Source: Giardia intestinalis
Lineage: Eukaryota
NCBI GenBank assembly: GCA_000002435.2
Contig: CM018790.1
Length of the DNA stretch: 64,000 nt
Strand: one strand, 5' to 3'
Both the position numbers and the translations under genes were made by a program. The notes below the pieces were generated by a model. It worked only from the letters and a program-made list of their open reading frames with translations. It had not been told where the DNA came from and ran no database searches. Shown piece after piece: positions 10,352 through 23,841 of the stretch (position 1 is the stretch's first letter; each line of letters begins with the position of its first letter).

Positions 10352-13300
10352 TCACTGATAAGGTTCATGGCATAAAGGGCAAACACTTAGGTGCGTCTTA
10401 CCCATGGTGGCCAATGAGCGACACATCTGACACAGCACTGTTTTGTCCATTTTGTCCGACTTAATTGGCTGCCCCGTACGGACACAAATGGGTGTTTGCC
10501 AGTGACACTTTTCACACATTCCGCAGTACGGTGGAAGAAGTGTATTGCAGTGACCACAGTTTATCTGATAGTTGTCCTTTCGCTTGCTCGGGACAGATGT
10601 GATATTGTATTCGCTGTATATTAGCACAGACATCTGCTCCAGCTGATCCCGCTCAGACGCCGGGAGCTCTGTGTCTGCTTCGATAAGTTCCAGCAAGTTG
10701 GATGCCAATTCAAAATCACCAAATAACAACGCTGCCTGTGCTGCAATTGGCAGGGCTATGCGGCTTAGGTACTGGATACACGGATCAGCAGAGCTCTGAG
10801 AGTCGTTTGTGCGGTGGTAGTAGTTTGCTGCCTCTATAGCAGGCCAAAGGGCCTGTTCGGGATTGCCTATGTAAAGCATGTACGACGAAAGTACTATGAA
10901 TCTGGTTTGCCTGGCGATGCGCCATATGACAGGGACTGAGCGCAGACGCGACTGGGCGTTCTCGAGCTCATGCTCCAAGGAGCTAGCTTCTTTACCAGTA
11001 TTCTTCGCCTTCACGTCATGGACAGCCTTGGAGTTGTCATCCTCATTAATAAATGTGTCTATCGCAGCATTGGTGGCCTGCTCAGTCAACATGCAATCGG
11101 GCGCTGCAGACGCATGTGCTTGTAGATTCTTTTTTGCTTGCTCTCGCTGCACATAGGTGGCTTCTTTACCAGCTAGGACTATAATGCGACGCAGCTTGCT
11201 AAAAAGGCCCGGTGGCATGGGAAATGTTCTATTGACAAAGATCGTCTGAAGCTCTTTTAATACCAAGTTGATAATCACTGCCGCAATGACCTCCCCCTGT
11301 TTGGTTTTGCGCAGCAACTCTAACGCCCCTTGGTCGTCACCAGCAGCAAGCAACTGCTTTAAGTAGACGGATAGTTCACGATCTATAATGTGTAGAATAT
11401 TGTGCTTTCCGGCTATGGCAGCCGCTATGTCAAACCGTTTGAGCTGCAATGATATGTGGACGGCGCTGTGAGGGTCGTTAACGCGCACAAGAGCTTCAGA
11501 CGCACCCTCTACGTCTCCGAGCCTCGCCAGCATGACAGCCACCTTGGCAATGCAGTTTGCAAATTCATCCACAGGAAGAGAAACCGCTAGCGCCTTAAGC
11601 TCTGCGTATCTTCGTGCAGCAAACAAACTTTCAGCATAAAGATAGGGATCTCCGGACTTCTGAAGAAAGTCACTAGCAATTGCATACTGTTGCTGGCGCA
11701 TGTAGTATAGCCCAATCGACTTGTGCGCTTTTTCGAGAAGCTTGTCGTCTATGAGGAGATTGCCACCTGGAGTGCGGGATAGCTTCGCTGCCCTTATAAT
11801 GGATAGCCACATTTGTAGGTCTGTCTGCGTCTTGACTATCAAGTCAGGACGTCCCAGAACCTGTTTGTATACGTGTTCTGCAGAGCTGAAGTTTCCGATG
11901 AGCATAAGCATTTCAGCACGCCTCTGATCTTGCGACTGCAGCCGTAGGAGCGACTCACAAAAGTTGTATGAGACATAGTCCCCTGCACGAATGTAGAAGT
12001 AGCTTGCTACCTCAAGACGCAAAGTAATTAAGCTGGCCTCCGCCACTATCCGGTAAAGGTGAACGGAGGGATGACTCTTCACGTACTCAACTGCTCCAGC
12101 CAGGTTGATAGATATCTGGCCGTCTTTACTATAGAGAGCCTGGCTGGTTTGTGTACTTGGCTGGCTTGAGTTGCTGGCCGTGACGTCTAGGCCCGAATCA
12201 ACCATATCCCCCACAGGTTGCTGGCCCCGCACGGGTTTGATGGCGATTGTCTTCGGAGCGACTGAGTCGAAGAGAGAGCTGGGGACGCCCGACTTAGAGT
12301 CACTTGTTAGTGATATCATGTTCTTGTTGAGGCAGCCTCTGTTCAGTGCAGCATCGACCAGGGGATTAAAGGACTCCGGTGCTTGCTGCTGTCCAAAGAT
12401 AATCTCTTGTAGCTCCCGCAACATCTGCGTTTCTAAGACGTAGTAGGCATGATCGAGAGACGAAATATTGTGTGAGACCTCATCCAGGTATGATGCAATT
12501 ATTGACAGCCCTGAGAACCCTATGATATGGGCAGAGGTTTGAATCGAGTCCTCTCTTGTCTGCGTATCAAGGTGGAAAACAATTACCTTGTACTGAGAAG
12601 AGACGGCGACGAGGTTGGGGTCCTCTGGGCTAAAGACAAGACCCCAGATTCCAATTAGTTCTGGCGAATAAGGTGGAATCGTAGACACACCTCCTGATCT
12701 GGCCTGAGCAGAGTCCTGAAGAAGCTCTCCTGAGCTCACATTGACATTTTTGAGAACGCTATTCTTAATGACGTATGGGGCGCTTTCTGTCTCCACAACA
12801 GAGTCCTGTCCAAAGCCCAGCGCAGCTGCAGTATCCGCATCTGTGTCCAATAGTGTAAGATGGGCCTGAGCCTGTGGTGGTTTAGGAGCTGGTTGTTGTT
12901 TTTGTTGCTGTTGCTCTGCGGGATTGTGATGGGCATAAAGAAACTCTGAATAGTATGACTGAGTGTAGTAAAAAACAAGGGATCCATCTTCGTGAAGACA
13001 TGCCAATACCGTTCCGTTGCAATTTGTTTGCATGTATTCCTGGTTGGGCTTTATGGTCATTGTTTCTAAAAGCGTAAGAGAAGGGAGGGAGTATCGTTGG
13101 ACTCTCTCATCCTGACGAGCGACGAAGAGGGCCACATCACAGCAGGCAACTCCCACTATCGGATTGTTGACCGTTAGTCGAGCAACTGTCAGCTCACGGT
13201 CTTGTGCTAACGGGTAAGAATCAGCATGCCATTCATAGACGTACGACACGTTTTCAGCATCAACCAAGCCTATCGCTTCATTGGCAAGACCCCGTATATC

Positions 13301-14974
13301 GACTACAGAAATACGACTGGAGCTGGCGCAAACAAGATAGTTCCCAGACCCTGCAGTGTAAAACGGGACGTAGGGGAGATCTATCGAGAAGATCGGGGCA
13401 CATACACTTGTATAAAAGCAGATATGCGTGTGATGTTTCCGCGTGCCACTGGTGTTCGTTTTGAGAGTTAGAATCGCAATGTAGCTCTTGCATCCTACAA
13501 CTGCGATCATCCGTGCCGGCCATCGCTGATAAGGAGCCTGCAAACCGGGCTTCCAGAAGAGTACACACTCGTTACACCGTGCACGATCCAGGATACGCTC
13601 CTCAAAACTAGAGATCGCCGAGCTAGGTGCCTCTTCTGCTGTCTTCTTGCTGAACAAGGCGCCTACATTCATTGGGGGCCGCTGAGTATCGTCTACAAAG
13701 CTTGCTGTGCTTAGAATGGTTGAGGTATAGTTGCTCATAGTAAATGCCATAGTCCCGTCATTCATAAGATAGTGATTGTAGGACGGACGCACCGTGGCGA
13801 TGTATATATTCTTGCCCGCTGCTAACACTAGACGGAGTCCCGTAGAGTCCCAAGAGGAGGAGGTAGCCACTCTTTCTGGCAATCTTAGCCGTGAAATAGT
13901 GGCCAGATCTGCAGTTCTATAGACTACAACAATTGCGGTGTGCTTAGTACTATCTCCAGAGACACCCTGGTTACCTCTAAGCTGATGCAAACCGAAGTTA
14001 GAGTCAGAAGATTGCACAGAACCTGTAATACAGAGCATGTGACTTCCTGGAGACAACTGGACATTAACTGGTATAATCTCGGTTGAAACAGAAGATAGGA
14101 GCTCCCCTGTTAGTACAGAGTAGACGCAGAGCATCCCATTTGAAGTAACGGCGATCAGTGTCATGGAGTCCCCGGAGAAGGAGTTGATCTTAATTTGCGG
14201 CATAGAAGAGCCATTGCATGCAGGATCGCGTGATGGACTCAGAGCCGTGAGCTGAGCAGACTCTGACGAGTGCCCCCAGCAACCATGAACGAAGTGGTTA
14301 TCGCTATTTGTTGCCAGCAATGGAGAGACGCTCCAGACCTCCTCTCCACTGAAATTATAGCAGCAAATAGCGTTTCCCCACGCCAATATAAACACTTCGA
14401 TGGCGTTACTAGCAATTAGCCCAAACTTGGGGGCAGAGCCCTTGTTGATGGTGCCATTGTAAATCCTGTGCCCTGAAGCAGTACCGAGCATCACCAGACC
14501 ATTAACGTAGACCATCAGAATGCGGCTAGCATCCGGGGACCAAGTTGTTGTTACAACTGCTGCTCGATTTGAGTCATTGACCAGATTCCGCACCCACTTC
14601 CCCGTGTCTGTAGAGGAGATAAACACGAGCCCTCGGTTATCGCTTGTTGCTAGTTTTGTTTCTTTCTCATTCCACGCGATGCTTGTTATAAGTGCGTTAT
14701 CGTGAAGGCTGAGCTTCTTATCCATGAGAATCCTTACGTTGCGAGTAGACGTGCGCAGATCAGAGATATTATAGCCCTGCTCCGATAACGAATTGAAGTC
14801 TAGAAGCAGGATGCGAATAGACCCCGTCTGCCCTCCAGCAGCTATATAGTTCTCAGTCTTGTTCCAGGCAACCAGAACGACTTCCTCGCCTGTGTCAGTG
14901 AACTCTAAACACTTTAGAATGAAGGCGGTGGAGGGCATTAGCGCTGGTAATTTGCAAGAGAAATTAAAAAACAT
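10352..14974 (-). CDS. IFT121: Intraflagellar transport protein IFT121 (WDR35) homologue
   Basis: N-terminus MFFNFSCKL..KCLEF..VAWNKTENYIAAGGQTGSIRILLLD aligns with WDR35 ([35 protein letters not shown]). It has tandem WD40 propellers, a TPR-like solenoid, and a C-terminal zinc-ribbon-like tail (CGHC..CGMCEKC..CPLCHEPYQ, compare WDR35 ..CPLCHSP). Confidence 0.8.
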   Translation of the reverse strand: MFFNFSCKLPALMPSTAFILKCLEFTDTGEEVVLVAWNKTENYIAAGGQTGSIRILLLDFNSLSEQGYNISDLRTSTRNVRILMDKKLSLHDNALITSIAWNEKETKLATSDNRGLVFISSTDTGKWVRNLVNDSNRAAVVTTTWSPDASRILMVYVNGLVMLGTASGHRIYNGTINKGSAPKFGLIASNAIEVFILAWGNAICCYNFSGEEVWSVSPLLATNSDNHFVHGCWGHSSESAQLTALSPSRDPACNGSSMPQIKINSFSGDSMTLIAVTSNGMLCVYSVLTGELLSSVSTEIIPVNVQLSPGSHMLCITGSVQSSDSNFGLHQLRGNQGVSGDSTKHTAIVVVYRTADLATISRLRLPERVATSSSWDSTGLRLVLAAGKNIYIATVRPSYNHYLMNDGTMAFTMSNYTSTILSTASFVDDTQRPPMNVGALFSKKTAEEAPSSAISSFEERILDRARCNECVLFWKPGLQAPYQRWPARMIAVVGCKSYIAILTLKTNTSGTRKHHTHICFYTSVCAPIFSIDLPYVPFYTAGSGNYLVCASSSRISVVDIRGLANEAIGLVDAENVSYVYEWHADSYPLAQDRELTVARLTVNNPIVGVACCDVALFVARQDERVQRYSLPSLTLLETMTIKPNQEYMQTNCNGTVLACLHEDGSLVFYYTQSYYSEFLYAHHNPAEQQQQKQQPAPKPPQAQAHLTLLDTDADTAAALGFGQDSVVETESAPYVIKNSVLKNVNVSSGELLQDSAQARSGGVSTIPPYSPELIGIWGLVFSPEDPNLVAVSSQYKVIVFHLDTQTREDSIQTSAHIIGFSGLSIIASYLDEVSHNISSLDHAYYVLETQMLRELQEIIFGQQQAPESFNPLVDAALNRGCLNKNMISLTSDSKSGVPSSLFDSVAPKTIAIKPVRGQQPVGDMVDSGLDVTASNSSQPSTQTSQALYSKDGQISINLAGAVEYVKSHPSVHLYRIVAEASLITLRLEVASYFYIRAGDYVSYNFCESLLRLQSQDQRRAEMLMLIGNFSSAEHVYKQVLGRPDLIVKTQTDLQMWLSIIRAAKLSRTPGGNLLIDDKLLEKAHKSIGLYYMRQQQYAIASDFLQKSGDPYLYAESLFAARRYAELKALAVSLPVDEFANCIAKVAVMLARLGDVEGASEALVRVNDPHSAVHISLQLKRFDIAAAIAGKHNILHIIDRELSVYLKQLLAAGDDQGALELLRKTKQGEVIAAVIINLVLKELQTIFVNRTFPMPPGLFSKLRRIIVLAGKEATYVQREQAKKNLQAHASAAPDCMLTEQATNAAIDTFINEDDNSKAVHDVKAKNTGKEASSLEHELENAQSRLRSVPVIWRIARQTRFIVLSSYMLYIGNPEQALWPAIEAANYYHRTNDSQSSADPCIQYLSRIALPIAAQAALLFGDFELASNLLELIEADTELPASERDQLEQMSVLIYSEYNITSVPSKRKDNYQINCGHCNTLLPPYCGMCEKCHWQTPICVRTGQPIKSDKMDKTVLCQMCRSLATMGKTHLSVCPLCHEPYQ

Positions 14975-15065: not shown

Positions 15066-16931
15066 TCATACCCTATTAATTCGTTCATCTTCCCCTTCGC
15101 TCACAGGAAGAAAGATTGCAGAGGCGCTACAGAGATCGTCTTCGATCTCTCCATCCTCCTCACTGGGGTCAAACTGGGGCGGTAGGAGCTCTGTGGGAAC
15201 TCCCCGGGCAACAAGCTCGTCGATAACAAGGCGAGGTCCAGAGTAAGCACAGACATCCTGGGGAGTCACAGAGCCATAGTATTCGTTGCCAGCGTCTCCC
15301 ATATATGAAGTAATGGACCCTGCTTCTGAATACTCCTCGGAAGCGCTAAGAGCTGCATCGGTGTTCGACAACAACCGATGATGTCTGTGGGTTTCACGGC
15401 CCGCAAGGATCTGATGCATATTGCGATCGTGTAGGATGTTTGCTTGCGAGATCATGCTAGAATTGGACGAGTCCACCACAAGTGATGGCGTCACCATAGA
15501 CGGATAACCCTGCTCTATCTCCTCATCAGTAGTGCTTACTAAGCTTGCAACAGATGTAGAGGTTATTGCACGAAGTTTGGTAGAAGCCGGTGTCTCTGTG
15601 CTGCCATCAGTGCCCTTAACGGATGGAACTGACATAGTGCCTCGTGACAGGTAGTCTGTCAGTAGCAACGTTTTAGAACAAGGATGCTCGTTCTCCCTTT
15701 CTTTCACAGCGCTTGGAGCCTGGTCTGTCGGCCACTCGACTTGGGGCATTATAGGTGTGCGTCTGCCGTTACTGACTGGAATGTCATTTTTGTTGTGCTG
15801 ATTGTTTTTGTCACGAGCTGTGTGGGACTCTTGGTTCGAGCCATACGTAGAGAGAGAAACCCTGCTAGTGAAGATGTGAGTGATTTGTTGCAGCGTTTGC
15901 TTTCCTGTTTGTGTGCTGCCCCCAATGGCTGAGAATTGTGGCTCATGTACCATACTTGCTATTCGCCGGTGCATTATAGCGCCATCCCGGAGGGTGGGGT
16001 GCTTTATAGTGTGTGTAGCCGACCCTAGACTCGTGTACCCCTGGTCATAGAGAGTACAGTAGTGTATGCGGAACCTCTTGAGAAAGTCCCAAACATCGAC
16101 ATAAGACCAGTACAGTATGGGGCACACCCTCATGAACTGCGGCCACGAGGGAGAGCAGTGGGAAAAGATGGTTGTCTTCCCATTAGGGTCTGTAGACCGG
16201 ACGCCCATGAAGACCGCGTCTGAGTGATAGTCGTTATAGAAGTTGACAATGCAGTTCTTGAAGCTCGTGCCCAAATACACCACTGTCCCTAGGTTCTGTT
16301 CGTGATCTATGAGACACATAAACTTCATCACCTGCTTTATCTGAACCTCATTGTGAACGTAGAAGAAAATAAACCGCGAACGAAGCAATTCATGGGGGGT
16401 GATGCTTTCAAAATCTGAGTTTTCCTCTATGACCGCCTGAAGACAGGCTGCACGGATTAGGTACAGAACAACGGTATTGTCCTTTCCTCCGTTGAAGCTA
16501 AATGCCAGTCGTCGGTATTGGCGCATGGCCGCACGAATGACCACAAGGGCTTGGTATATCTTCTGCGCAAACTGAAGCTCTAGGGAATCATTAACCAGAG
16601 GTGTCTCAGTTGATTCAGTGGAGGATGGATTGAGGCGCACGTCATTATTATCAGCCATATGTCTAATTTCATTAGGAGGCCGCACAGGGTTAAGGTCACT
16701 CGTTTGGCGTGGGTTGTTGCTGGCACTAATGGTGGCAGATTGTGGCGATTCTTGGTCACCAGTGGGGCCATTAGTGAAATTGGCCGCCTTCTGGGCAAAT
16801 TCAAGGATACTCTTACACTCGGGGAACCACTCGGAACCCTTGGGAATAACGGAGTCTGGGTTCAAAAGGATAGCCTCTTCCTTCCGCGGGGGTGAAAAGA
16901 GAAACTCGGGATAGGTATGATGAGTGCTCAT
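15066..16931 (-). CDS. FAD synthase (FMN adenylyltransferase), PAPS-reductase-like fold
   Basis: FSFNGGKDNTVVLYL .. VFMGVRSTDPNG .. WPQFMRVCPILYWSYVDVWDFLKRF..HYCTLYDQGYTSLG matches the FLAD1/Fad1 catalytic domain nearly motif for motif. It has a long low-complexity C-terminal tail. Confidence 0.8.
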   Translation of the reverse strand: MSTHHTYPEFLFSPPRKEEAILLNPDSVIPKGSEWFPECKSILEFAQKAANFTNGPTGDQESPQSATISASNNPRQTSDLNPVRPPNEIRHMADNNDVRLNPSSTESTETPLVNDSLELQFAQKIYQALVVIRAAMRQYRRLAFSFNGGKDNTVVLYLIRAACLQAVIEENSDFESITPHELLRSRFIFFYVHNEVQIKQVMKFMCLIDHEQNLGTVVYLGTSFKNCIVNFYNDYHSDAVFMGVRSTDPNGKTTIFSHCSPSWPQFMRVCPILYWSYVDVWDFLKRFRIHYCTLYDQGYTSLGSATHTIKHPTLRDGAIMHRRIASMVHEPQFSAIGGSTQTGKQTLQQITHIFTSRVSLSTYGSNQESHTARDKNNQHNKNDIPVSNGRRTPIMPQVEWPTDQAPSAVKERENEHPCSKTLLLTDYLSRGTMSVPSVKGTDGSTETPASTKLRAITSTSVASLVSTTDEEIEQGYPSMVTPSLVVDSSNSSMISQANILHDRNMHQILAGRETHRHHRLLSNTDAALSASEEYSEAGSITSYMGDAGNEYYGSVTPQDVCAYSGPRLVIDELVARGVPTELLPPQFDPSEEDGEIEDDLCSASAIFLPVSEGEDERINRV

Positions 16932-16981: not shown

Positions 16982-17542
16982 ATGGACGTGAACACGCAGA
17001 CATGTGCCCACGCAATCCTCTTCTCGGATCTTGATGACCTGTTTTGGGAAACTGCCACCGAGAACGAGGCTATTTGTCAGACAGACCCTTTTCAGGTTGC
17101 GACCTGGACGGATACACACCTGGATACGGGTGCCAACACACCAGATCTATCTGCTAGTGCTCCACAGCTGCACCGCAACACCCGTAGTACGCCCCTGGAG
17201 CTCAGGTTGAAGGTCGTCCAGCTCCGAGAGCAGCAGTCCCTACCGTTCTCCACGATTTCCTCAATGTTGGCAATGCCTCTGACAACCGTGAAGTCCATAT
17301 GGCAGACGTACCGGCGGGAGGGGCGTGTGAAGCCACTCCAGGGAGGGGGCTGGAACCAGCGGCCAGACCGCATGACAGTCGACGCCCGGGTTTCGGGGCC
17401 TGTCCAAGCCCGGATTCTTGAGCTCCGCGCCGCGCACGCCTCGCTCCGGGCCATCTCGGACAGCGTCTGGCGCGAGTACGGGGTCCGGGTCTCGCGGTCG
17501 GCGTGCGGGGCGTTGCTCCAACGGCTGAAGACCCGTGAGTAA
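16982..17542 (+). CDS. Paired-domain-like bipartite helix-turn-helix protein (Pax-like factor, or the orphan N-terminal DNA-binding domain of a Tc1/mariner-type transposase)
   Basis: Residues 75-185 (LRLKVVQLREQQSLPFSTISSMLAMPLTTVKSIWQTYRREGRVKP..GGGW..PDRMT.. then ILELRAAHASLRAISDSVWREYGVRVSRSACGALLQRL) follow the two-HTH paired/Tc1 pattern. No DDE catalytic domain lies downstream: the ORF stops 54 nt before a tRNA. GC3 is very high. Confidence 0.5.
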   Translation: MDVNTQTCAHAILFSDLDDLFWETATENEAICQTDPFQVATWTDTHLDTGANTPDLSASAPQLHRNTRSTPLELRLKVVQLREQQSLPFSTISSMLAMPLTTVKSIWQTYRREGRVKPLQGGGWNQRPDRMTVDARVSGPVQARILELRAAHASLRAISDSVWREYGVRVSRSACGALLQRLKTRE

Positions 17543-19763
17543 ACACACGGAAAATAGAGATAGGAAATCTATCGCCTGGTGTGGGCGACGGGCGCGCTCG
17601 CGTGGTGTAGTTGGTTATCACATTCGTTTCACGTACGAAGGGTCTAGGGTTCGAATCCCTACGCGAGCATCTTCCGTTCACTCTCTCCACGAGCCGGAAC
17701 CCGACGAGGGATCGGGGCACGAACCTGTCCCGGTGCCACGGGGCCGGCGGGAGCTGGATGTTGTAGCGCGGGACGAACGCCGGCCCAGGGGGTTCCTGGT
17801 CCGGCACGGGGGTGTCGGCCTCGTTGGGGGCGCTGAGAAGGCTAATGCTGCTGTAGCTCTCCGCGCGGGCCAACGTCGTGTCGTGCTCGTCCCTATCATC
17901 GAAGAGCGTGGACCAGGGAATCTCGTCCGAGTTAGACGGGCTCGATCCTGCGGGAGCCGCAGACTTGGTCGCAGAAGACGCATCAGGCTTCACTTTCTTC
18001 AGAGAGGGCTCGCAATCTGTGCAGGCCTGCTCGCCTGCGGCAGTGTTAATAGGGTTGTAAGGCTTGTTGAATCGGAGGCTCGGCGGCAAAATGCAGCGCC
18101 TCTTTACCTGCAAAACCCTGGTTAACAGCCTGCTTAAGCAGCAATGCGTCGGTGTGGTGCTTTTGATGTAAGGGTTCAGAAGGGTGCGATATGCTGTGAT
18201 GCTAACGACACTTGTGTAAGAGGTGCCCAAGAGCCCTAACCAGGAAAGGTATGTTCGGGCATCGATACAGGCCGTTTCCTTGATCGGGTAGCCAGACGGT
18301 GCCGCACCCAGCAGCAAATTATCACTAGCCCTGCACGACGCCGTCAGTGTGGCGCTGACCTCTTGAACCGCGGGGTCACTTGCGTCGCAGATGACCTTCA
18401 CGCAGCCAGAAAGCTTTCCAGAGATGTAGGAGAGAGTCGCTAAGAAATCACCGGAAGAGCCCCCTATCAATATGGCATGCTGCAAAATAAAGCTGCACTT
18501 GTAGTTACGGGTGAAGTACATGGGATCGCGCTTGACGAAAAAGAGGTGGTAGAATTTGACATCGCTTCCGTCAGCGGCGTTGAGGCCAGACACCATATTT
18601 ATATTTCTTCTGTATGCATGAGAGAGCTCTGGCGTTCGCCGTATCTGGTCTGTCATGTAAGTGCAGTAGTCGTTTCGACAACCCTCAAAGAGGCTTGAAA
18701 AGGCCTCGGCAAACTCTCCGGTAAGATTGTGCAGGAAGCAGATGGCGTCGATGAGGCTCCAGCAGTAGTAGATTACGTCCCAGATTGGCGTTTTACAGCT
18801 GAAGAGGGAGCATTCATAAAAAGGTTTGTCTATGCCGGTGAAGGCAGGAAAATCGAAGGCATGAGCGGCAGCGGGCGGAGCAGACGCGCTCGTCCTCTCC
18901 TCGCCGGGCCGTTGCTGTATCGTGGGAAGCTTCGGCTCACTCCGTGTAAGGACCTCTGACCTGAGGCCATCTGATGGAGTGCCCGTCGGCTGTAAACGCG
19001 CTACTGCAAGCAGAGTGCTTCTGTTTTGCCTTCCAGAAAGCCTCTCTGAGGGGTCGGATTGCGCCACTACCCTGCTTTCCATAGTGAAGTTGTCCTTCAA
19101 GAATACGGAGCTTGCCGCAACAGGGGCTGTGGTAAGGCGAGGCAGCATCTCTGTAGATGCGGCATCAGTGGCATGCTTTGCTGGCCCGCATTTTGGCCTC
19201 TTCACCTTAGACCCGCTGGGGTCTTGTACAGGTCTGCTCTGGGAGACGACCGACTGCGTCTCTGTCTTGATGCTTCGAGTCTGTGCTTTTTGCGCCGATG
19301 CATGAGCCAGTCGCTCAGCAGAGTCCTTCGTTGAGGAGGATGTCTGCTCTCGAACCATTGGGGGAGAACTTGAGTGATTGGAAAGAGGCCTCGGAAGGCT
19401 TTGGGAGGAACATGCCCCTCCCTTGTGTCCACAGTATGTCTTTTCCGCGCCTTTTATGGTCTGGTCGACCACAAATAGGTCCTTTTGGGAAAGAAAATAC
19501 TCTGTCGCAGCAATGAGGAGGGGCAAAGCCTTGCTAAGCTTCCTGCCGTAGAGGGGGATGACGACCCGTCTGAATAGCAAATGCATAACATCCCCCAGGT
19601 CTGCGTCCGGATCTATACGGGGAATTTGAGGCCTGGGCGCAGGCTTCGCGCCAGGAGGCTCAGAAACAGCCTCCTTGGGTTCTTCAAAGGTTGTCTTGGT
19701 GATATGCTTGGCCTCAAGGTGTCTGATGAGGTTGAAGAAAGAGTTGATGGCATATATTAGCAT
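17202..19763 (-). CDS. hypothetical protein; the 3' limit is uncertain because the ORF reads without a stop through the tRNA-Val and the 3' end of the Pax-like ORF
   Basis: An ATG is present at 19761-19763. Roughly 19763-18100 looks like ordinary coding sequence (a Cys-rich central domain and a low-complexity S/T/P tail). The GC3-rich tail continues to about 17700. Beyond that, the in-frame read-through to 17202 is probably an artefact of stop-codon-poor GC-rich DNA, or reflects a frameshift. Confidence 0.5.
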   Translation of the reverse strand: MLIYAINSFFNLIRHLEAKHITKTTFEEPKEAVSEPPGAKPAPRPQIPRIDPDADLGDVMHLLFRRVVIPLYGRKLSKALPLLIAATEYFLSQKDLFVVDQTIKGAEKTYCGHKGGACSSQSLPRPLSNHSSSPPMVREQTSSSTKDSAERLAHASAQKAQTRSIKTETQSVVSQSRPVQDPSGSKVKRPKCGPAKHATDAASTEMLPRLTTAPVAASSVFLKDNFTMESRVVAQSDPSERLSGRQNRSTLLAVARLQPTGTPSDGLRSEVLTRSEPKLPTIQQRPGEERTSASAPPAAAHAFDFPAFTGIDKPFYECSLFSCKTPIWDVIYYCWSLIDAICFLHNLTGEFAEAFSSLFEGCRNDYCTYMTDQIRRTPELSHAYRRNINMVSGLNAADGSDVKFYHLFFVKRDPMYFTRNYKCSFILQHAILIGGSSGDFLATLSYISGKLSGCVKVICDASDPAVQEVSATLTASCRASDNLLLGAAPSGYPIKETACIDARTYLSWLGLLGTSYTSVVSITAYRTLLNPYIKSTTPTHCCLSRLLTRVLQVKRRCILPPSLRFNKPYNPINTAAGEQACTDCEPSLKKVKPDASSATKSAAPAGSSPSNSDEIPWSTLFDDRDEHDTTLARAESYSSISLLSAPNEADTPVPDQEPPGPAFVPRYNIQLPPAPWHRDRFVPRSLVGFRLVERVNGRCSRRDSNPRPFVRETNVITNYTTRARPSPTPGDRFPISIFRVFTHGSSAVGATPRTPTARPGPRTRARRCPRWPGARRARRGAQESGLGQAPKPGRRLSCGLAAGSSPLPGVASHAPPAGTSAIWTSRLSEALPTLRKSWRTVGTAALGAGRPST
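17596..17669 (+). tRNA. tRNA-Val (anticodon CAC)
   Basis: Hand-folded cloverleaf. The acceptor stem is GCTCGCG/CGCGAGC. The D-arm is GTGTAGTTGGTTATCAC. The anticodon stem is TTCGT/ACGAA with loop TTCACGT (anticodon CAC). It has a 5-nt variable loop, T-arm TAGGG-TTCGAAT-CCCTA and discriminator A, with no encoded CCA. It is very close to canonical eukaryotic tRNA-Val. Confidence 0.85.
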
Positions 19764-20553
19764 ATGAATTTTTTAGAAGGCGGATCAAAAATGTTCTCAC
19801 CACAACACATGCATGACGATAATCATTTTTATATTTTCATTTTTTAAGCAATGCAGATTGATACTGTAGATTACTGTATACCATTGAAGGTTGCTGTATG
19901 CTCTTCCATAATTGTTTAGACTGGATTATAGATGCGTTAAACGCACTAGGCAAGTAGTAGGCTCCCTTCGACTCTCAAGTAGGGGTCATTAGCAATCAGC
20001 GTCCACCCGTGATTCCTGCCCACTGGCCCCCCAAGTGTAACCACTGGCCCTGAAGCACGGATCTGCGGCCTGGCACGTTTCGGTTATCTGTGAGACGGGT
20101 TTTCGTCTGTCTATGAGCTGGGAATAATAAAGCTGTCAACGGCACGTGCTCTCAGATTAGAAGACACGCGATTGGGATTAGGAGGCATCGGCACCGGAGC
20201 CCCTGTGCAGAGAGCACAACTAAGGTGTCCACATCTCACATGACTGAGCAAACAAACTAGTAGGAACGGTGGATGGAACTAGAGCCTTTTCCTGATTGAC
20301 AGACACAAAAGGGGAGGCTGATCGATAAAGGCGTTTATGTCTGGATGTGATAGACCCATAGAGCTCAGGTTCTAGGCTGCATGCTTTGCTGTGATGTCCT
20401 TTTGCTGTGATTGCCTGCCTCGGGCCCGATCTGAGGCATCGATCCGCTAATTTGTACTAAATACACATTATTAATATTTTGTGAGAAATTACTCTTTGCT
20501 TCAAAATTAACAAAAAACACGACAAGAACCAGACATCCGTTAACAAAAAGCAA

Positions 20554-22803
20554 ATGGTTTTCGTGCTTCTCCTGGCTGCCTTCGGGGCGCTCCTTTCGGC
20601 TCCGTCGCACTCCCAGCAGCTGCACTGCCTCTACGAGTTCTACGACGCTCTCCAGGGGGATTCGTGGTGGGTCAGAAACAACTGGCCGGCTTCCACCCAG
20701 CGAACAGAGGATGAGGACTATTGCCAGTTCTACGGGATTACGTGCGATTCGTCCGGCAATGTTGAGGGGATCACGATGCCTGGGAACAATCTCTTCGGAG
20801 TCCTTCCCACGTGCATCATCAACTTCCCCTTGAAGGTGCTCTCCGTCCCGCACAATAGGTTGCGAGAGTCCATCCCATATATCAAGAACGGCATCGAGGT
20901 GCTGAACCTGGAGGATACCGAAATCATGGTTCTGGCGACTGACATGCAAGCCTGGACGACTGTCCGTGAGATGAACCTTCACAAGGGCCACTTCGGGCGG
21001 ATGCTCATTCCCAACGACTTCATCTTCTACAGCAATATGGAGAACCTCGACTTCTCTGACGCCGGGATAGGCTTCTACGCCTGGGGCCTCGACTTCACGA
21101 CCATCAGCACTCCAAAGCTCAGCCTCGCCGGCATGGATCTCTCAGAATACATCATGAGCAACGTCGCAAAAGACCAGATGAAGGCCTTGGATGTCTCCGG
21201 GACCTGGGTAAAGTACCGTATAAAGGACTTTAATAAGGACTTCCTGGACGTCTATAACATGGTTCACATGCCCTTCCAGTACACACTCATGTCCTCCATC
21301 ATTAACTTCTCAACGCTTATCGATATGTCAAGCAAGGACGTTCGCTCCATCAACATCCGCGGGACTAACACCACCGGTGTGTTTGACCCGGAGAAGTGGA
21401 TGAACTTTGTCGTGAACCAAACCAGGGATGACTTCTACATGCTCGACATGTCCTACAATGGTCTCAGTGGCTACGGGCCGACCCTGCAGCAGTACGAGAC
21501 GGTTCTCGCACTCAAGCCGAGTGCTCGCTATCTCTCGCTCGAGCTCAACTCGTTCTTCTGCGATTACAAGGAGAGCAGGATGTTCGGGTGCAGTCGCCTC
21601 CGTATTTACGACGCGTATTACCTTGCCAGCTATGAGCGCCTCATGGTCCTTGTTGACTATTCCCACTTCGCATATGCACCCCTCAGGGATCTCCAGTACC
21701 ACATGAGTGTTATCTTCCGCAATATCACGAAGTACAAGACAGAGACAGACCCGATAAAGCGTATCCAGAACATAGAGACATATAATTACATTCACGCCCG
21801 CAGCAGTGCCGGCCTTGGCTACTTCTGTGTTGACGTCACGATACCGTACGACGAGGCAGTGGCTCTTGGGCTCCTCGAGATGAACAAGACATTTGTTGGC
21901 ATTCTCTACGATGGCCATCTGATCAGCGGGCGCTCCTTCAATCTCGTTCATGAAGTAGGCCTCGACAAGGACAGTTCTGCGGTGGACGCCTCTGAGAAAC
22001 CCGGCCGCCGCTGCACAATCCCCTCTGGGTGCACTGTCGACGAAGACTATGACGAGACCAAGGACCCGGTTCCTGTCCCTGCTCTTTCGCATAAGCTGTC
22101 TACGCACGACGAGGACCATAGGAAGGATGTCGCCAAGAGGCTTATTTCTGGCGCCAAGAAGGCGGAGATGAATCTCACGTGGACATACCTTGCTCACGAG
22201 TCTGAGCAGAAGATCGCTGTTGACACCTTTGCGATGTCCAGGTGCGGAGACTTCTATGAGCGCCTTAACACAGTCATCCTGCCCCTTTTCGATAAGTATC
22301 CTGAGATCACTGAAATAGCGCAGTTCAAACACTTCAGTATGTCCGAGTACAATCCTAGGTACTCGAATGGCGGTCTTTCCAAGCACGGGTATGAGGAGGT
22401 TAAGGGTGACATTCAGCTCCTCTGCGCCCAGGAGTACGTCGATACACACACATTCTACGACATCCTCAAGTGCCTCTCGACGGAGGGCGGAAAGACCGCT
22501 CTTCCGCGCAACTTCGAGCACTGCCTGCATCAAGTTGCCTCTGGCAAGGAGCTTCTCAACAAGATAATATACTGCTCCAATGGTGAGTTCGGCAGGGCGC
22601 TTCTTGAGTATTCTTATAAACAGAAGCACAAGATGTCTGTTGCCAACTCTCCCGACATCTTTATTGGCAAGAAGATGGTGTGCCACGGGACCATGGCTTA
22701 CTGTGTGACCACCGACGCGGACTCTTTTGCCCAGCAGATTTGTCAGGCCTTTATCCGCGAGAAGAACTACACACCCGACATCTGTAATAGTATCTTGAGC
22801 TGA
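20554..22803 (+). CDS. Secreted leucine-rich-repeat protein with a cyst-wall-protein-like N-terminal cap
   Basis: It has a signal peptide (MVFVLLLAAFGALLSAPSHS). Next is an LRRNT-like cap, LHCLYEFYDALQGDSWW..NNW..YCQFYGITCDSSGNV..NNLFGVLP, closely resembling the Giardia CWP1-3 N-terminal (L..YDAT.G..W..NW..C..WYGVTCDSS..NNL.G.IP). LRRs follow, then a long C-terminal extension with scattered Cys. Total 749 aa. Confidence 0.7.
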   Translation: MVFVLLLAAFGALLSAPSHSQQLHCLYEFYDALQGDSWWVRNNWPASTQRTEDEDYCQFYGITCDSSGNVEGITMPGNNLFGVLPTCIINFPLKVLSVPHNRLRESIPYIKNGIEVLNLEDTEIMVLATDMQAWTTVREMNLHKGHFGRMLIPNDFIFYSNMENLDFSDAGIGFYAWGLDFTTISTPKLSLAGMDLSEYIMSNVAKDQMKALDVSGTWVKYRIKDFNKDFLDVYNMVHMPFQYTLMSSIINFSTLIDMSSKDVRSINIRGTNTTGVFDPEKWMNFVVNQTRDDFYMLDMSYNGLSGYGPTLQQYETVLALKPSARYLSLELNSFFCDYKESRMFGCSRLRIYDAYYLASYERLMVLVDYSHFAYAPLRDLQYHMSVIFRNITKYKTETDPIKRIQNIETYNYIHARSSAGLGYFCVDVTIPYDEAVALGLLEMNKTFVGILYDGHLISGRSFNLVHEVGLDKDSSAVDASEKPGRRCTIPSGCTVDEDYDETKDPVPVPALSHKLSTHDEDHRKDVAKRLISGAKKAEMNLTWTYLAHESEQKIAVDTFAMSRCGDFYERLNTVILPLFDKYPEITEIAQFKHFSMSEYNPRYSNGGLSKHGYEEVKGDIQLLCAQEYVDTHTFYDILKCLSTEGGKTALPRNFEHCLHQVASGKELLNKIIYCSNGEFGRALLEYSYKQKHKMSVANSPDIFIGKKMVCHGTMAYCVTTDADSFAQQICQAFIREKNYTPDICNSILS

Positions 22804-22806
22804 TTT

Positions 22807-23841
22807 ATGAGTAAAAGATCCGTTTTAATTATCCTGTGCTATGAACAGATTGAGGAATTAAAACTGATGAACGCCGTCCCCAGGGAACTGCGATCTCCAG
22901 TCACAGAGGCGATGCTCCTCCACAAGATAATTAGCAAGAAGCGCTTTTCTTTCCTCTACTCCGATAGCTACGAGACTGAGATAGAATTTCGTTTGGGGGT
23001 CTTTGAGGACTTTTTGAAGCAACGGCTTCGACCCCACAATCAACGCCTTGTAAGCGAGGCCCTTGTTCACCGGATTGTCCGCATGCAGGACTATGATATC
23101 ATGGAGGTCGCTGCTCGCCGAGAACCGCGAAATCCAATTTCTGACCCCAAGCAACTCCCTGAAAATAAGATTTACCAACGATTCAACGGAAACATCGGCG
23201 AGGAGACGTACCTGCGACTCATGAAGGCTCTTGTAGCCGCTCATGTTGCAGGAGATTCATCTTCATTTCTTGGAGCGAAGATACTCGGCATCGAGACAAA
23301 ACAGTTCCGGCAGGACTTGTATGACTATAAGGTGGGCGACGTGGTCACAGGTAACTATCGCGTGCGGACAGACGTTCTGACCGGCAAGCTTCTAGAGGAA
23401 GGATGCAAAATACAATTCGATGTGAGCAATATCCACTTTCCGCATACGTATATGTTTGATGTCCGCTTTGCAATAGCCAAAGAGTTCAGCATTGCGGCCG
23501 AAAAGAAGAATGAAATAAAGGAGTCGTCAAAGCCCAACACCTCAATAAGGAAGCGCACCTCCTTTCGGACAGAGGACTTCGTCATCGATCTCACATACGT
23601 GGAGCGCTATAACACTGTTGGGGTTCTCGAGGAAAAGCTCTACCAAGCGGAGCTGGAGGTCCTTCCCAAGACCTTTGGATCTGAGAGCTCAAAGCCTCCG
23701 GGCAGGATATTCGACGAACTCTTGGCAAACGTGAAGGCACTGATAGCTTGTGCTTCTGGTCTAACGACTCTCTATCCTCTTCCGGACAATTGGAAAGAGA
23801 TTATCGATCAATCCAATGCCCACCTCTCAAGTTCTGTGTAG
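22807..23841 (+). CDS. CYTH / Cet1-like triphosphate-tunnel metalloenzyme (probable mRNA 5'-triphosphatase)
   Basis: Motif A-like ETEIEFRLG (alternating Glu on a beta strand), then an RVRTDV basic strand, then C-terminal motif C-like AELEVLPK. The spacing resembles yeast Cet1 and protozoan RNA triphosphatases. Confidence 0.5.
   Translation: MSKRSVLIILCYEQIEELKLMNAVPRELRSPVTEAMLLHKIISKKRFSFLYSDSYETEIEFRLGVFEDFLKQRLRPHNQRLVSEALVHRIVRMQDYDIMEVAARREPRNPISDPKQLPENKIYQRFNGNIGEETYLRLMKALVAAHVAGDSSSFLGAKILGIETKQFRQDLYDYKVGDVVTGNYRVRTDVLTGKLLEEGCKIQFDVSNIHFPHTYMFDVRFAIAKEFSIAAEKKNEIKESSKPNTSIRKRTSFRTEDFVIDLTYVERYNTVGVLEEKLYQAELEVLPKTFGSESSKPPGRIFDELLANVKALIACASGLTTLYPLPDNWKEIIDQSNAHLSSSV
22810..22815 (+). 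promoter_or_regulatory. AGTAAA polyA-signal-like motif of the LRR gene, embedded in the first codons of the next gene
   Basis: Sequence tgatttATGAGTAAAag. The LRR-gene stop is at 22801-22803, the downstream ATG at 22807, and AGTAAA at 22810-22815. Confidence 0.45.

Follow-up and report, generated by a model that had tools for sequence, protein, structure and literature searches.

The cyst wall proteins of Giardia, CWP1, CWP2 and CWP3, are compact proteins of 26-39 kDa that combine a signal peptide, four to five canonical leucine-rich repeats (LRRs) of the plant type and a C-terminal cysteine-rich region, and their expression is encystation-specific. Proteins of the GILT family (PF03227; mouse GILT, PDB 6NWX), on the other hand, are recognised by a CXXC active site and the signature CQHGX2ECX2NX4C. 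Here we analysed GL50803_5795, a gene in a stretch of 64,000 nucleotides of Giardia intestinalis contig CM018790.1 (assembly GCA_000002435.2; hereafter the window), the product of which had been put forward from its sequence as a large, possibly undescribed member of the CWP family or else an extracellular LRR adhesin. We show that GL50803_5795 belongs to a fusion family of anaerobic protists in which an LRR module is joined to a GILT-fold domain, and that it is not a member of the CWP family. In the literature that we searched, no description of this LRR-monothiol GILT architecture, or of a family with both soluble and membrane-anchored paralogs, was found, and neither was any experimental study of the LRR-GILT proteins of the other protists.

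GL50803_5795 encodes an LRR module fused to a monothiol GILT-fold domain

The open reading frame (ORF), which the original prediction had placed exactly, begins at an ATG and specifies a protein of 749 aa. Its product is 100% identical to XP_001707182.1 / KAE8302178.1 / UniProt A8BGG4 of G. intestinalis WB, and because mass-spectrometry peptides match this product, GL50803_5795 is a genuine gene. Nor is it undescribed, as had been considered possible: the gene, which is known under this identifier in papers and lies on chromosome 2 (GLCHR02:648619-650868), has had a GenBank record since ~2001 and is included in every Giardia genome annotation.

The last ~200 aa of the protein form a GILT-fold domain. 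Pfam GILT (PF03227) matched aa 556-660 with 25.9 bits in the full-length protein and 29.4 bits in the isolated domain (cut-off 22.4), and the match covered positions 2-106 of the 107 positions of the profile. A model of aa 545-749, based on an alignment of 41 sequences, showed a thioredoxin fold with a helical insertion (predicted local distance difference test (pLDDT) 93.8, predicted template modelling score 0.90). When this model was searched with Foldseek, mouse GILT (6NWX) was recovered (E=3e-7, template modelling score 0.69-0.74). The C-terminal sequence on its own gave no match in the PDB, and the profile of 41 sequences was required to reach 6NWX, which was the only match of this profile (E=9e-17). 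The identity to mouse GILT is 16%, and the Giardia protein further differs from it by the LRR module and linker of ~545 aa that are fused N-terminally.

The active site of the domain is altered. In the profile-to-6NWX alignment, C564 lies opposite the first cysteine of the C-G-A-C motif of mouse GILT and F567 opposite the second, leaving the monothiol motif C-G-D-F in place of CXXC. The GILT signature is degenerate as well, since S609 and V616 occupy both cysteine positions of the mouse sequence CQHGELEC, with H611, G612 and E615 conserved. Over its full length the signature reads S609-K-H-G-Y-E-E-V616-K-G-D-I-Q-L-L-C624, in which HG, E, G and the final cysteine are kept and the first two cysteines are lost. 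Across the family, C564, H611, G612, E615 and S699 are each either invariant or show conservation of at least 90% (C564 at least 90%). Among 222 related domains, C564 was present in ~210 and the proline of the cis-Pro loop in 195; P700, the corresponding residue of GL50803_5795, would be expected to adopt the cis conformation from its fold family. At the active-site position, 193 of these domains carry C-x-x-non-Cys, compared to nine with CXXC and eight with CXX[S/T], and the monothiol state therefore marks this whole branch, beyond the LRR fusions. Eight further cysteines of the domain are conserved (624, 640, 657, 674, 710, 717, 730 and 744). Because these eight could pair with each other and C564 makes the total odd, the sequence suggests that C564 is a free thiol.

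At the N-terminus the protein starts with a predicted signal peptide, MVFVLLLAAFGALLSAPSHS, in which aa 1-19 represent the sole hydrophobic segment of the protein and cleavage would occur after SHS. The cap motif that had been noted behind it, L.CLYEFYDALQGDSWW..NNW..C.FYGITCDSSGNV..NNLFGVLP, was verified. Pfam LRRNT_2 scored 20.3 bits on aa 19-65, slightly below its cut-off of 20.7. The degenerate LRRs that follow include one irregular unit of 54 aa (aa 209-262), and the module closes with a conserved FFCDYKESRMFGC cap (FFCD..C). A module of the same extent is found in other members of the family: aa 5-349 aligned end-to-end with the LRR-GILT protein TNJ30271.1 of G. muris (BLASTP, 105 bits, E=3e-29), and the family hidden Markov model (HMM) of the N-terminal module spans positions 2-347. 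The long non-LRR C-terminal region that had been described is thus shorter than claimed, with ~10 LRRs reaching to aa 346, but the end of the protein is indeed free of LRRs, its ~200 aa being the GILT domain. Assemblages A and B are most alike in the cap (96% identity), followed by the LRRs (91%) and the GILT domain (88%), and differ most in the linker (70%). A full-length AlphaFold2 model from four Giardia orthologs reached a pLDDT of 29 and was not used for the LRR module or for aa 347-545.

LRR-GILT proteins form a family in anaerobic protists

In an exhaustive HMMER search, aa 111-749 were compared with 1.84 billion representatives, and 151 matches were significant. One of them, P0115, is homologous over the full length (33% identity, E=1e-99). 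About a dozen were proteins of 600-800 aa, matched via their C-terminal domain, and many were short or tandem proteins of the GILT/DsbA-like type. In the long matches, Pfam scans placed LRR/LRRNT_2 N-terminally and GILT C-terminally, and with phmmer and HMM searches both modules were found to be homologous to those of GL50803_5795 in 17 cluster representatives. Members are TNJ30271.1 of G. muris, the 788-aa paralog EET01364.1 of G. duodenalis GS, XP_067763988.1 of Spironucleus salmonicida, GIQ83663.1 of Kipferlia bialata (automatically named GILT), KAJ5077099.1 of Anaeramoeba ignava and proteins of Chilomastix cuspidata and Mastigamoeba balamuthi.

GL50803_5795 shows the complete order of the family, namely a signal peptide, the LRRNT_2 cap, an LRR module of ~350 aa ending in FFC..C, a variable region and the monothiol GILT domain. 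The proteins of the other protists share this module order, the cap, the FFC..C end, the conserved cysteine pattern and a monothiol motif of the C-P-x-[FY] type, but are only 20-34% identical to it and vary in the middle region. Invariant throughout the family are G35, W38, W44, C57, G61 and C64 in the cap, C336 and C346 at the end of the LRR module, and G612, E615, C624, C640, C657 and C674 in the GILT domain.

Outside Fornicata, LRR-GILT proteins were found in Anaeramoeba ignava (P0190) and in the amoebozoan Mastigamoeba balamuthi (P0251), the latter automatically annotated as 'polygalacturonase inhibitor'. Because of this distribution, the fusion is either ancient or has passed by transfer from one anaerobic protist to another. 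Among the closest relatives that lack the fusion are tandem GILT/DsbA proteins annotated as coming from DPANN archaea (P0126, Nanobdellota archaeon). An annotated homology search with the family profile returned plant LRR receptors only and did not inform on taxonomy.

Four members, including the G. duodenalis paralog EET01364.1, carry one C-terminal transmembrane helix and a short cytoplasmic tail, whereas the GL50803_5795 protein ends right after the GILT domain. Judged by their C-terminal 45 residues, these four (P0121, P0123 (EET01364.1), P0124 and P0125) are type I membrane proteins. A [DE]xxL[LI] motif is present in three of the four tails (EPGLL, DPELI and EARLL), with a rough chance estimate of ~0.04 per tail, and P0123 also contains YSSI. 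These motifs look like endolysosomal sorting signals and hint that the membrane-bound paralogs may cycle through the endocytic system. Literature tables list further Giardia 'Leucine-rich repeat proteins': GL50803_4039 / GL50581_4262, of which 4039 was found in secretomes beside 5795, and GL50803_11684, from the cyst-surface proteome.

The similarity to cyst wall proteins is not specific

GL50803_5795 would be a CWP-family member or a structural component of the cyst wall, sorted to encystation-specific vesicles (ESVs), if its N-terminal signature were taken as diagnostic. For comparison we used CWP1 of G. duodenalis (P0009) and of G. muris (P0011) together with further CWP-family sequences. 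The signal peptide and cap motif do resemble those of CWPs: BLASTP against CWP1 gave 39.3 bits (E=9e-8, 32% identity), although only over aa 20-108, which comprise the cap and the first two repeats. Shared with CWP1-3 are the signal peptide, plant-type LRRs and an LRRNT_2-type cap with the pattern C..Y(D/E)..G..W...NW....C.(W/F).G(V/I).C, and CWPs matched the family N-terminal profile at ~100 bits, over positions 1-162 only.

This resemblance is statistically real but not CWP-specific. The LRR-cadherin protein P0007 matched the same profile with 120-152 bits. When the N-terminal 180 aa were scored, CWP-family sequences reached 35-44 bits and unrelated environmental LRR proteins 47-68 bits, in a test set that was biased to CWP1 relatives. 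The best sequence matches of aa 21-173 in the PDB were plant TMK3 (E=2e-5) and FLS2 (E=1e-4). Proteins of the general LRR class thus match equally well or better, and no closer relationship to CWP1-3 was found. With the plant LRR receptor ectodomains (TMK1/TMK3, FLS2) and with polygalacturonase-inhibitor-type LRR proteins, GL50803_5795 shares the LRRNT_2 cap class; it differs from the plant receptors in having irregular repeats and a GILT partner and in lacking a kinase domain and a transmembrane segment. The signal peptide is common to hundreds of other proteins and does not discriminate CWPs. Moreover, the whole 349-aa module aligns with LRR-GILT proteins instead, and the architecture departs from the compact layout of CWPs: the protein is three times larger, has ~10 degenerate repeats instead of four to five canonical ones, contains a 200-aa middle region and ends in a GILT fold, where CWPs have their cysteine-rich C-terminus.

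We also compared published expression data. In RNA-seq (Einarsson 2016), GL50803_5795 had FPKM (fragments per kilobase of transcript per million mapped reads) values of 108, 173, 256 and 121 at 0, 1.5, 7 and 22 h of encystation and 53 in cysts. This corresponds to a modest maximum of 2.4-fold at 7 h, compared to 53-, 73- and 8.9-fold for CWP1, CWP2 and CWP3. The consensus list of encystation-induced genes does not include GL50803_5795. The protein was flat or transiently lower: spectral counts over an encystation time-course were 9, 8, 8, 7, 10, 11, 11 and 13, with an early transient drop, and it was assigned to the 'secretory pathway' class (Faso 2013). It was detectable in ESV fractions of an organelle proteome but was not enriched there (33, 29 and 47 versus 29, 23 and 39 in peripheral vacuole (PV) fractions; p=0.44), and it was placed on neither candidate list (Wampfler 2014). 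A 2025 cyst-surface proteome recovered CWP1-3 but not the GL50803_5795 protein. On ESV sorting and incorporation into the cyst wall, these proteomes bear only indirectly. The supplements of Rojas-Lopez 2021 and Dubourg 2018 do not mention GL50803_5795, which is uninformative as they may list only regulated genes. In a motif scan, no Myb2-type CWACAG motif was found within 400 bp upstream of the gene; with a background of 1.2 per kb in the window, and therefore ~0.5 expected upstream by chance, this absence is weak evidence.

In contrast, the protein is abundant in secretomes of non-encysting trophozoites. It was identified in the WB secretome with 19 unique peptides, 183 peptide-spectrum matches and 33% coverage (Ma'ayeh 2017), the peptides coming from both modules (LRR aa 189-210; GILT aa 571-592, 611-639 and 708-735), and in the same study its GS ortholog GL50581_821 was among the top secreted proteins. 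The flat RNA and protein levels in encystation and the abundance in trophozoite secretomes of two isolates support that GL50803_5795 encodes a soluble, constitutive trophozoite protein that is released into the medium. The claim of an extracellular LRR protein was therefore borne out. CWP-family identity, on the other hand, was rejected given the generic similarity, the GILT C-terminus, the constitutive expression and the lack of ESV enrichment, and it is hardly credible despite the significant CWP1 match, the small mRNA rise and the detection in ESV fractions; the encystation transcriptomics and proteomics that had been named as a check spoke against it. Identifying the LRR-GILT architecture removes the tempting but wrong reading of this protein as a 'fourth CWP'.

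Possible functions of the GL50803_5795 protein

On balance, we consider it probable that this constitutive, soluble secreted protein captures a ligand with its LRR module and acts on it via C564 of the GILT-fold domain. The LRR module, as the putative ligand-binding part, would capture a protein ligand in the extracellular space or in the endocytic space of the peripheral vacuoles, and the GILT-like domain would then attack disulfides of the ligand with C564, its one conserved nucleophilic cysteine. The resulting mixed disulfide would need an outside thiol for its resolution, because Phe replaces the second cysteine of CXXC. In Giardia, low-molecular-weight thiol is mainly free cysteine. Substrates could, speculatively, be cysteine-rich surface proteins of Giardia, endocytosed host proteins or Giardia lamblia virus (GLV). 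As to the site of action, detection in PV fractions is non-specific for an endolysosomal location. With the proposed function, a protein that trophozoites secrete in abundance, and that may be capable of thiol chemistry, would be placed at the host-parasite interface, where cysteine-rich surface proteins of Giardia and disulfide-linked host mucins and immunoglobulins predominate.

Alternatively, the GILT-like domain might be redox-dead and the protein purely a secreted ligand binder, either a host-directed adhesin or decoy or a cargo-binding partner. A parallel would be the TRX-like domain of plant vacuolar sorting receptors, which is non-catalytic. The resemblance to the TRX-like domain of VSR1 (PDB 8R4Y/9B1R) is structural only (12% identity), and the Giardia protein is soluble and has neither PA nor EGF domains, so that a sorting function would be speculation. 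We regard the redox-dead alternative as unlikely because C564 and the cis-Pro loop are so strongly conserved. Together with the conserved HG..E motif they form the pattern expected of a working thiol site, and the odd number of cysteines also suggests a free thiol.

In databases, GL50803_5795 is named a virus receptor. This label goes back to GenBank AF310726 (WB) and AF310725 (JH), unpublished entries deposited as 'virus receptor protein mRNA', from which it passed into genome annotation. Our literature search found no paper supporting the name, and according to GLV papers and reviews of 2021, 2024 and 2025 a receptor for GLV has yet to be identified. This exposes a mismatch between the databases and the GLV literature, and the receptor question can now be tested directly. 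As a GLV receptor or entry factor, the protein would attach to the capsid, either on the cell surface or inside peripheral vacuoles, and mediate uptake by endocytosis. Apart from the deposited name, this would agree with GLV entry, which reviews describe as receptor-mediated endocytosis via acidic peripheral vacuoles, and with the presence of the protein in PV-enriched fractions. An extracellular LRR module could plausibly bind a capsid, a GILT-like domain might suit an endolysosomal site, and the linker and other parts evolve fast, the protein being 34% identical to its positional ortholog (see below) compared to 44-53% for neighbouring genes. However, neither a transmembrane segment nor a hydrophobic C-terminus or other obvious anchor is present, and the product is shed into the culture medium, which fits poorly with a saturable surface receptor, although it may associate peripherally with the surface. 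The family also occurs in many protists without a known giardiavirus. Strain JH is reportedly resistant to the virus and WB susceptible. Yet the alleles of both strains are intact, so that the sequence offers no account of strain susceptibility: both cDNA products are full-length and differ at five positions, and they carry one and four substitutions relative to the window protein (I152V, A211T, D473G, R529K, D519G), none of them at a conserved residue. Taken together, a receptor function is quite improbable. A more elaborate version, in which a secreted, PV-associated entry factor binds the capsid with its LRRs and its monothiol GILT domain acts on capsid or host disulfides for uptake or uncoating, is slightly less probable still. 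If this version is true, no receptor of a protist totivirid was known before it, and a GILT-type protein would here promote viral entry instead of restricting it.

Features of the locus and conserved gene order

The window has ~49% G+C and is dense in long ORFs. The features of GL50803_5795 and its surroundings are given in Table 1.

Table 1. Positions in the window of GL50803_5795, of the parts of its product and of neighbouring genes
Feature	Position	Strand	Remarks
IFT121/WDR35	10352-14974	-	upstream of GL50803_5795
PAPS-reductase-domain gene	15066-16931	-	upstream
186-aa helix-turn-helix (HTH) ORF	16982-17542	+	upstream; sub-threshold HTH_SB, HTH_32 and PAX matches
853-aa ORF, putative gene	17202-19763	-	no Pfam match; antisense through tRNA-Val; overlaps 3' end of HTH ORF
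tRNA-Val(CAC)	17596-17669	+	upstream
AT-rich proximal upstream region, presumed promoter	20440..20553	+	sequence read
Complete coding sequence of GL50803_5795	20554..22803	+	749 aa; TGA stop 22801-22803
Predicted signal peptide, aa 1-20, MVFVLLLAAFGALLSAPSHS	20554..20613	+	hydrophobic aa 1-19; putative cleavage site (heuristic)
LRRNT_2-type N-terminal cap, aa 21-65	20614..20748	+	Pfam, PDB matches, family alignment
~10 degenerate LRRs, aa 66-346	20749..21591	+	LxxLxLxxNxL pattern scan and manual register
Middle region, aa 347-545, fold not assigned	21592..22188	+	no Pfam match; poorly conserved across family
Variable Asp/Ser-rich linker, aa 459-535	21928..22158	+	within middle region
C-terminal GILT-fold thioredoxin/DsbA-like domain, aa 546-749	22189..22800	+
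Monothiol redox motif C564-G-D-F567	22243..22254	+	at GILT CXXC position; profile-to-6NWX alignment
Degenerate GILT signature S609-K-H-G-Y-E-E-V616	22378..22401	+	aligned with mouse GILT CQHGELEC
S699-P700, predicted cis-proline loop of thioredoxin fold	22648..22653	+	aligned with V-P of mouse GILT
mRNA triphosphatase gene	starts 22807		downstream; followed by START-domain gene, 944-aa ORF and ankyrin protein
AGTAAA, putative poly(A) signal	22810..22815	+	sequence read; partial match to AGTRAAY

An 11.1-kb contig (L001) from SRA run SRR30592944, the source of which lies at roughly a G. muris-like distance from G. duodenalis, shares with the window the conserved block WDR35 / PAPS-reductase / HTH / LRR-GILT. 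The neighbouring genes are 44-53% identical between this contig and the window, compared to 34% for the LRR-GILT gene, which is also inverted. Because the synteny block is kept, P0115, the LRR-GILT protein encoded on L001, is the positional ortholog of GL50803_5795, and the lower identity indicates that the LRR-GILT gene has evolved faster than its neighbours. G. muris TNJ30271.1 was rejected as ortholog, as it has no neighbouring genes in common with the window, and is probably a paralog. On L001 the HTH ORF abuts the LRR-GILT gene directly. The segment of ~3 kb that holds the tRNA and the 853-aa ORF in the window looks lineage-specific and associated with the inversion of the LRR-GILT gene.

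The original prediction had also pointed to a Pax-like HTH ORF some 3 kb upstream, as suggestive but perhaps coincidental. The ORF exists, but all its HTH and PAX matches are below the Pfam cut-offs (PAX, 14.4 bits; cut-off 22). A syntenic homolog is present on L001 (2768-3349, minus strand; 33% identity, 90 bits), and because the ORF is conserved and syntenic in this distant Giardia-like genome, it probably encodes a genuine small DNA-binding protein. It is not Pax2, which has 302 aa (ORF 16640), and probably not Pax1 (ORF 32686), which we rejected by inference from its distant RefSeq accession. Its proximity to GL50803_5795 reflects conserved gene order, with nothing to indicate a regulatory link.

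Two ORFs lie antisense to GL50803_5795, at 20365-20991 and 21328-22686 on the minus strand (208 and 452 aa, both with GTG starts). They had no coding evidence and were rejected as genes, the peptides belonging to the plus-strand product; such shadow ORFs opposite long ORFs are common in the G. intestinalis genome. At the 3' end, the putative poly(A) signal partially matches AGTRAAY, which we take to be the consensus of Giardia mRNA 3' ends, and falls within the initial codons (M-S-K) of the mRNA triphosphatase gene downstream (Pfam mRNA_triPase, E=9e-9). Giardia genes are transcribed individually. Since the ATG of the downstream gene follows 3 nt past the TGA of GL50803_5795, its promoter must lie within the GL50803_5795 coding sequence.

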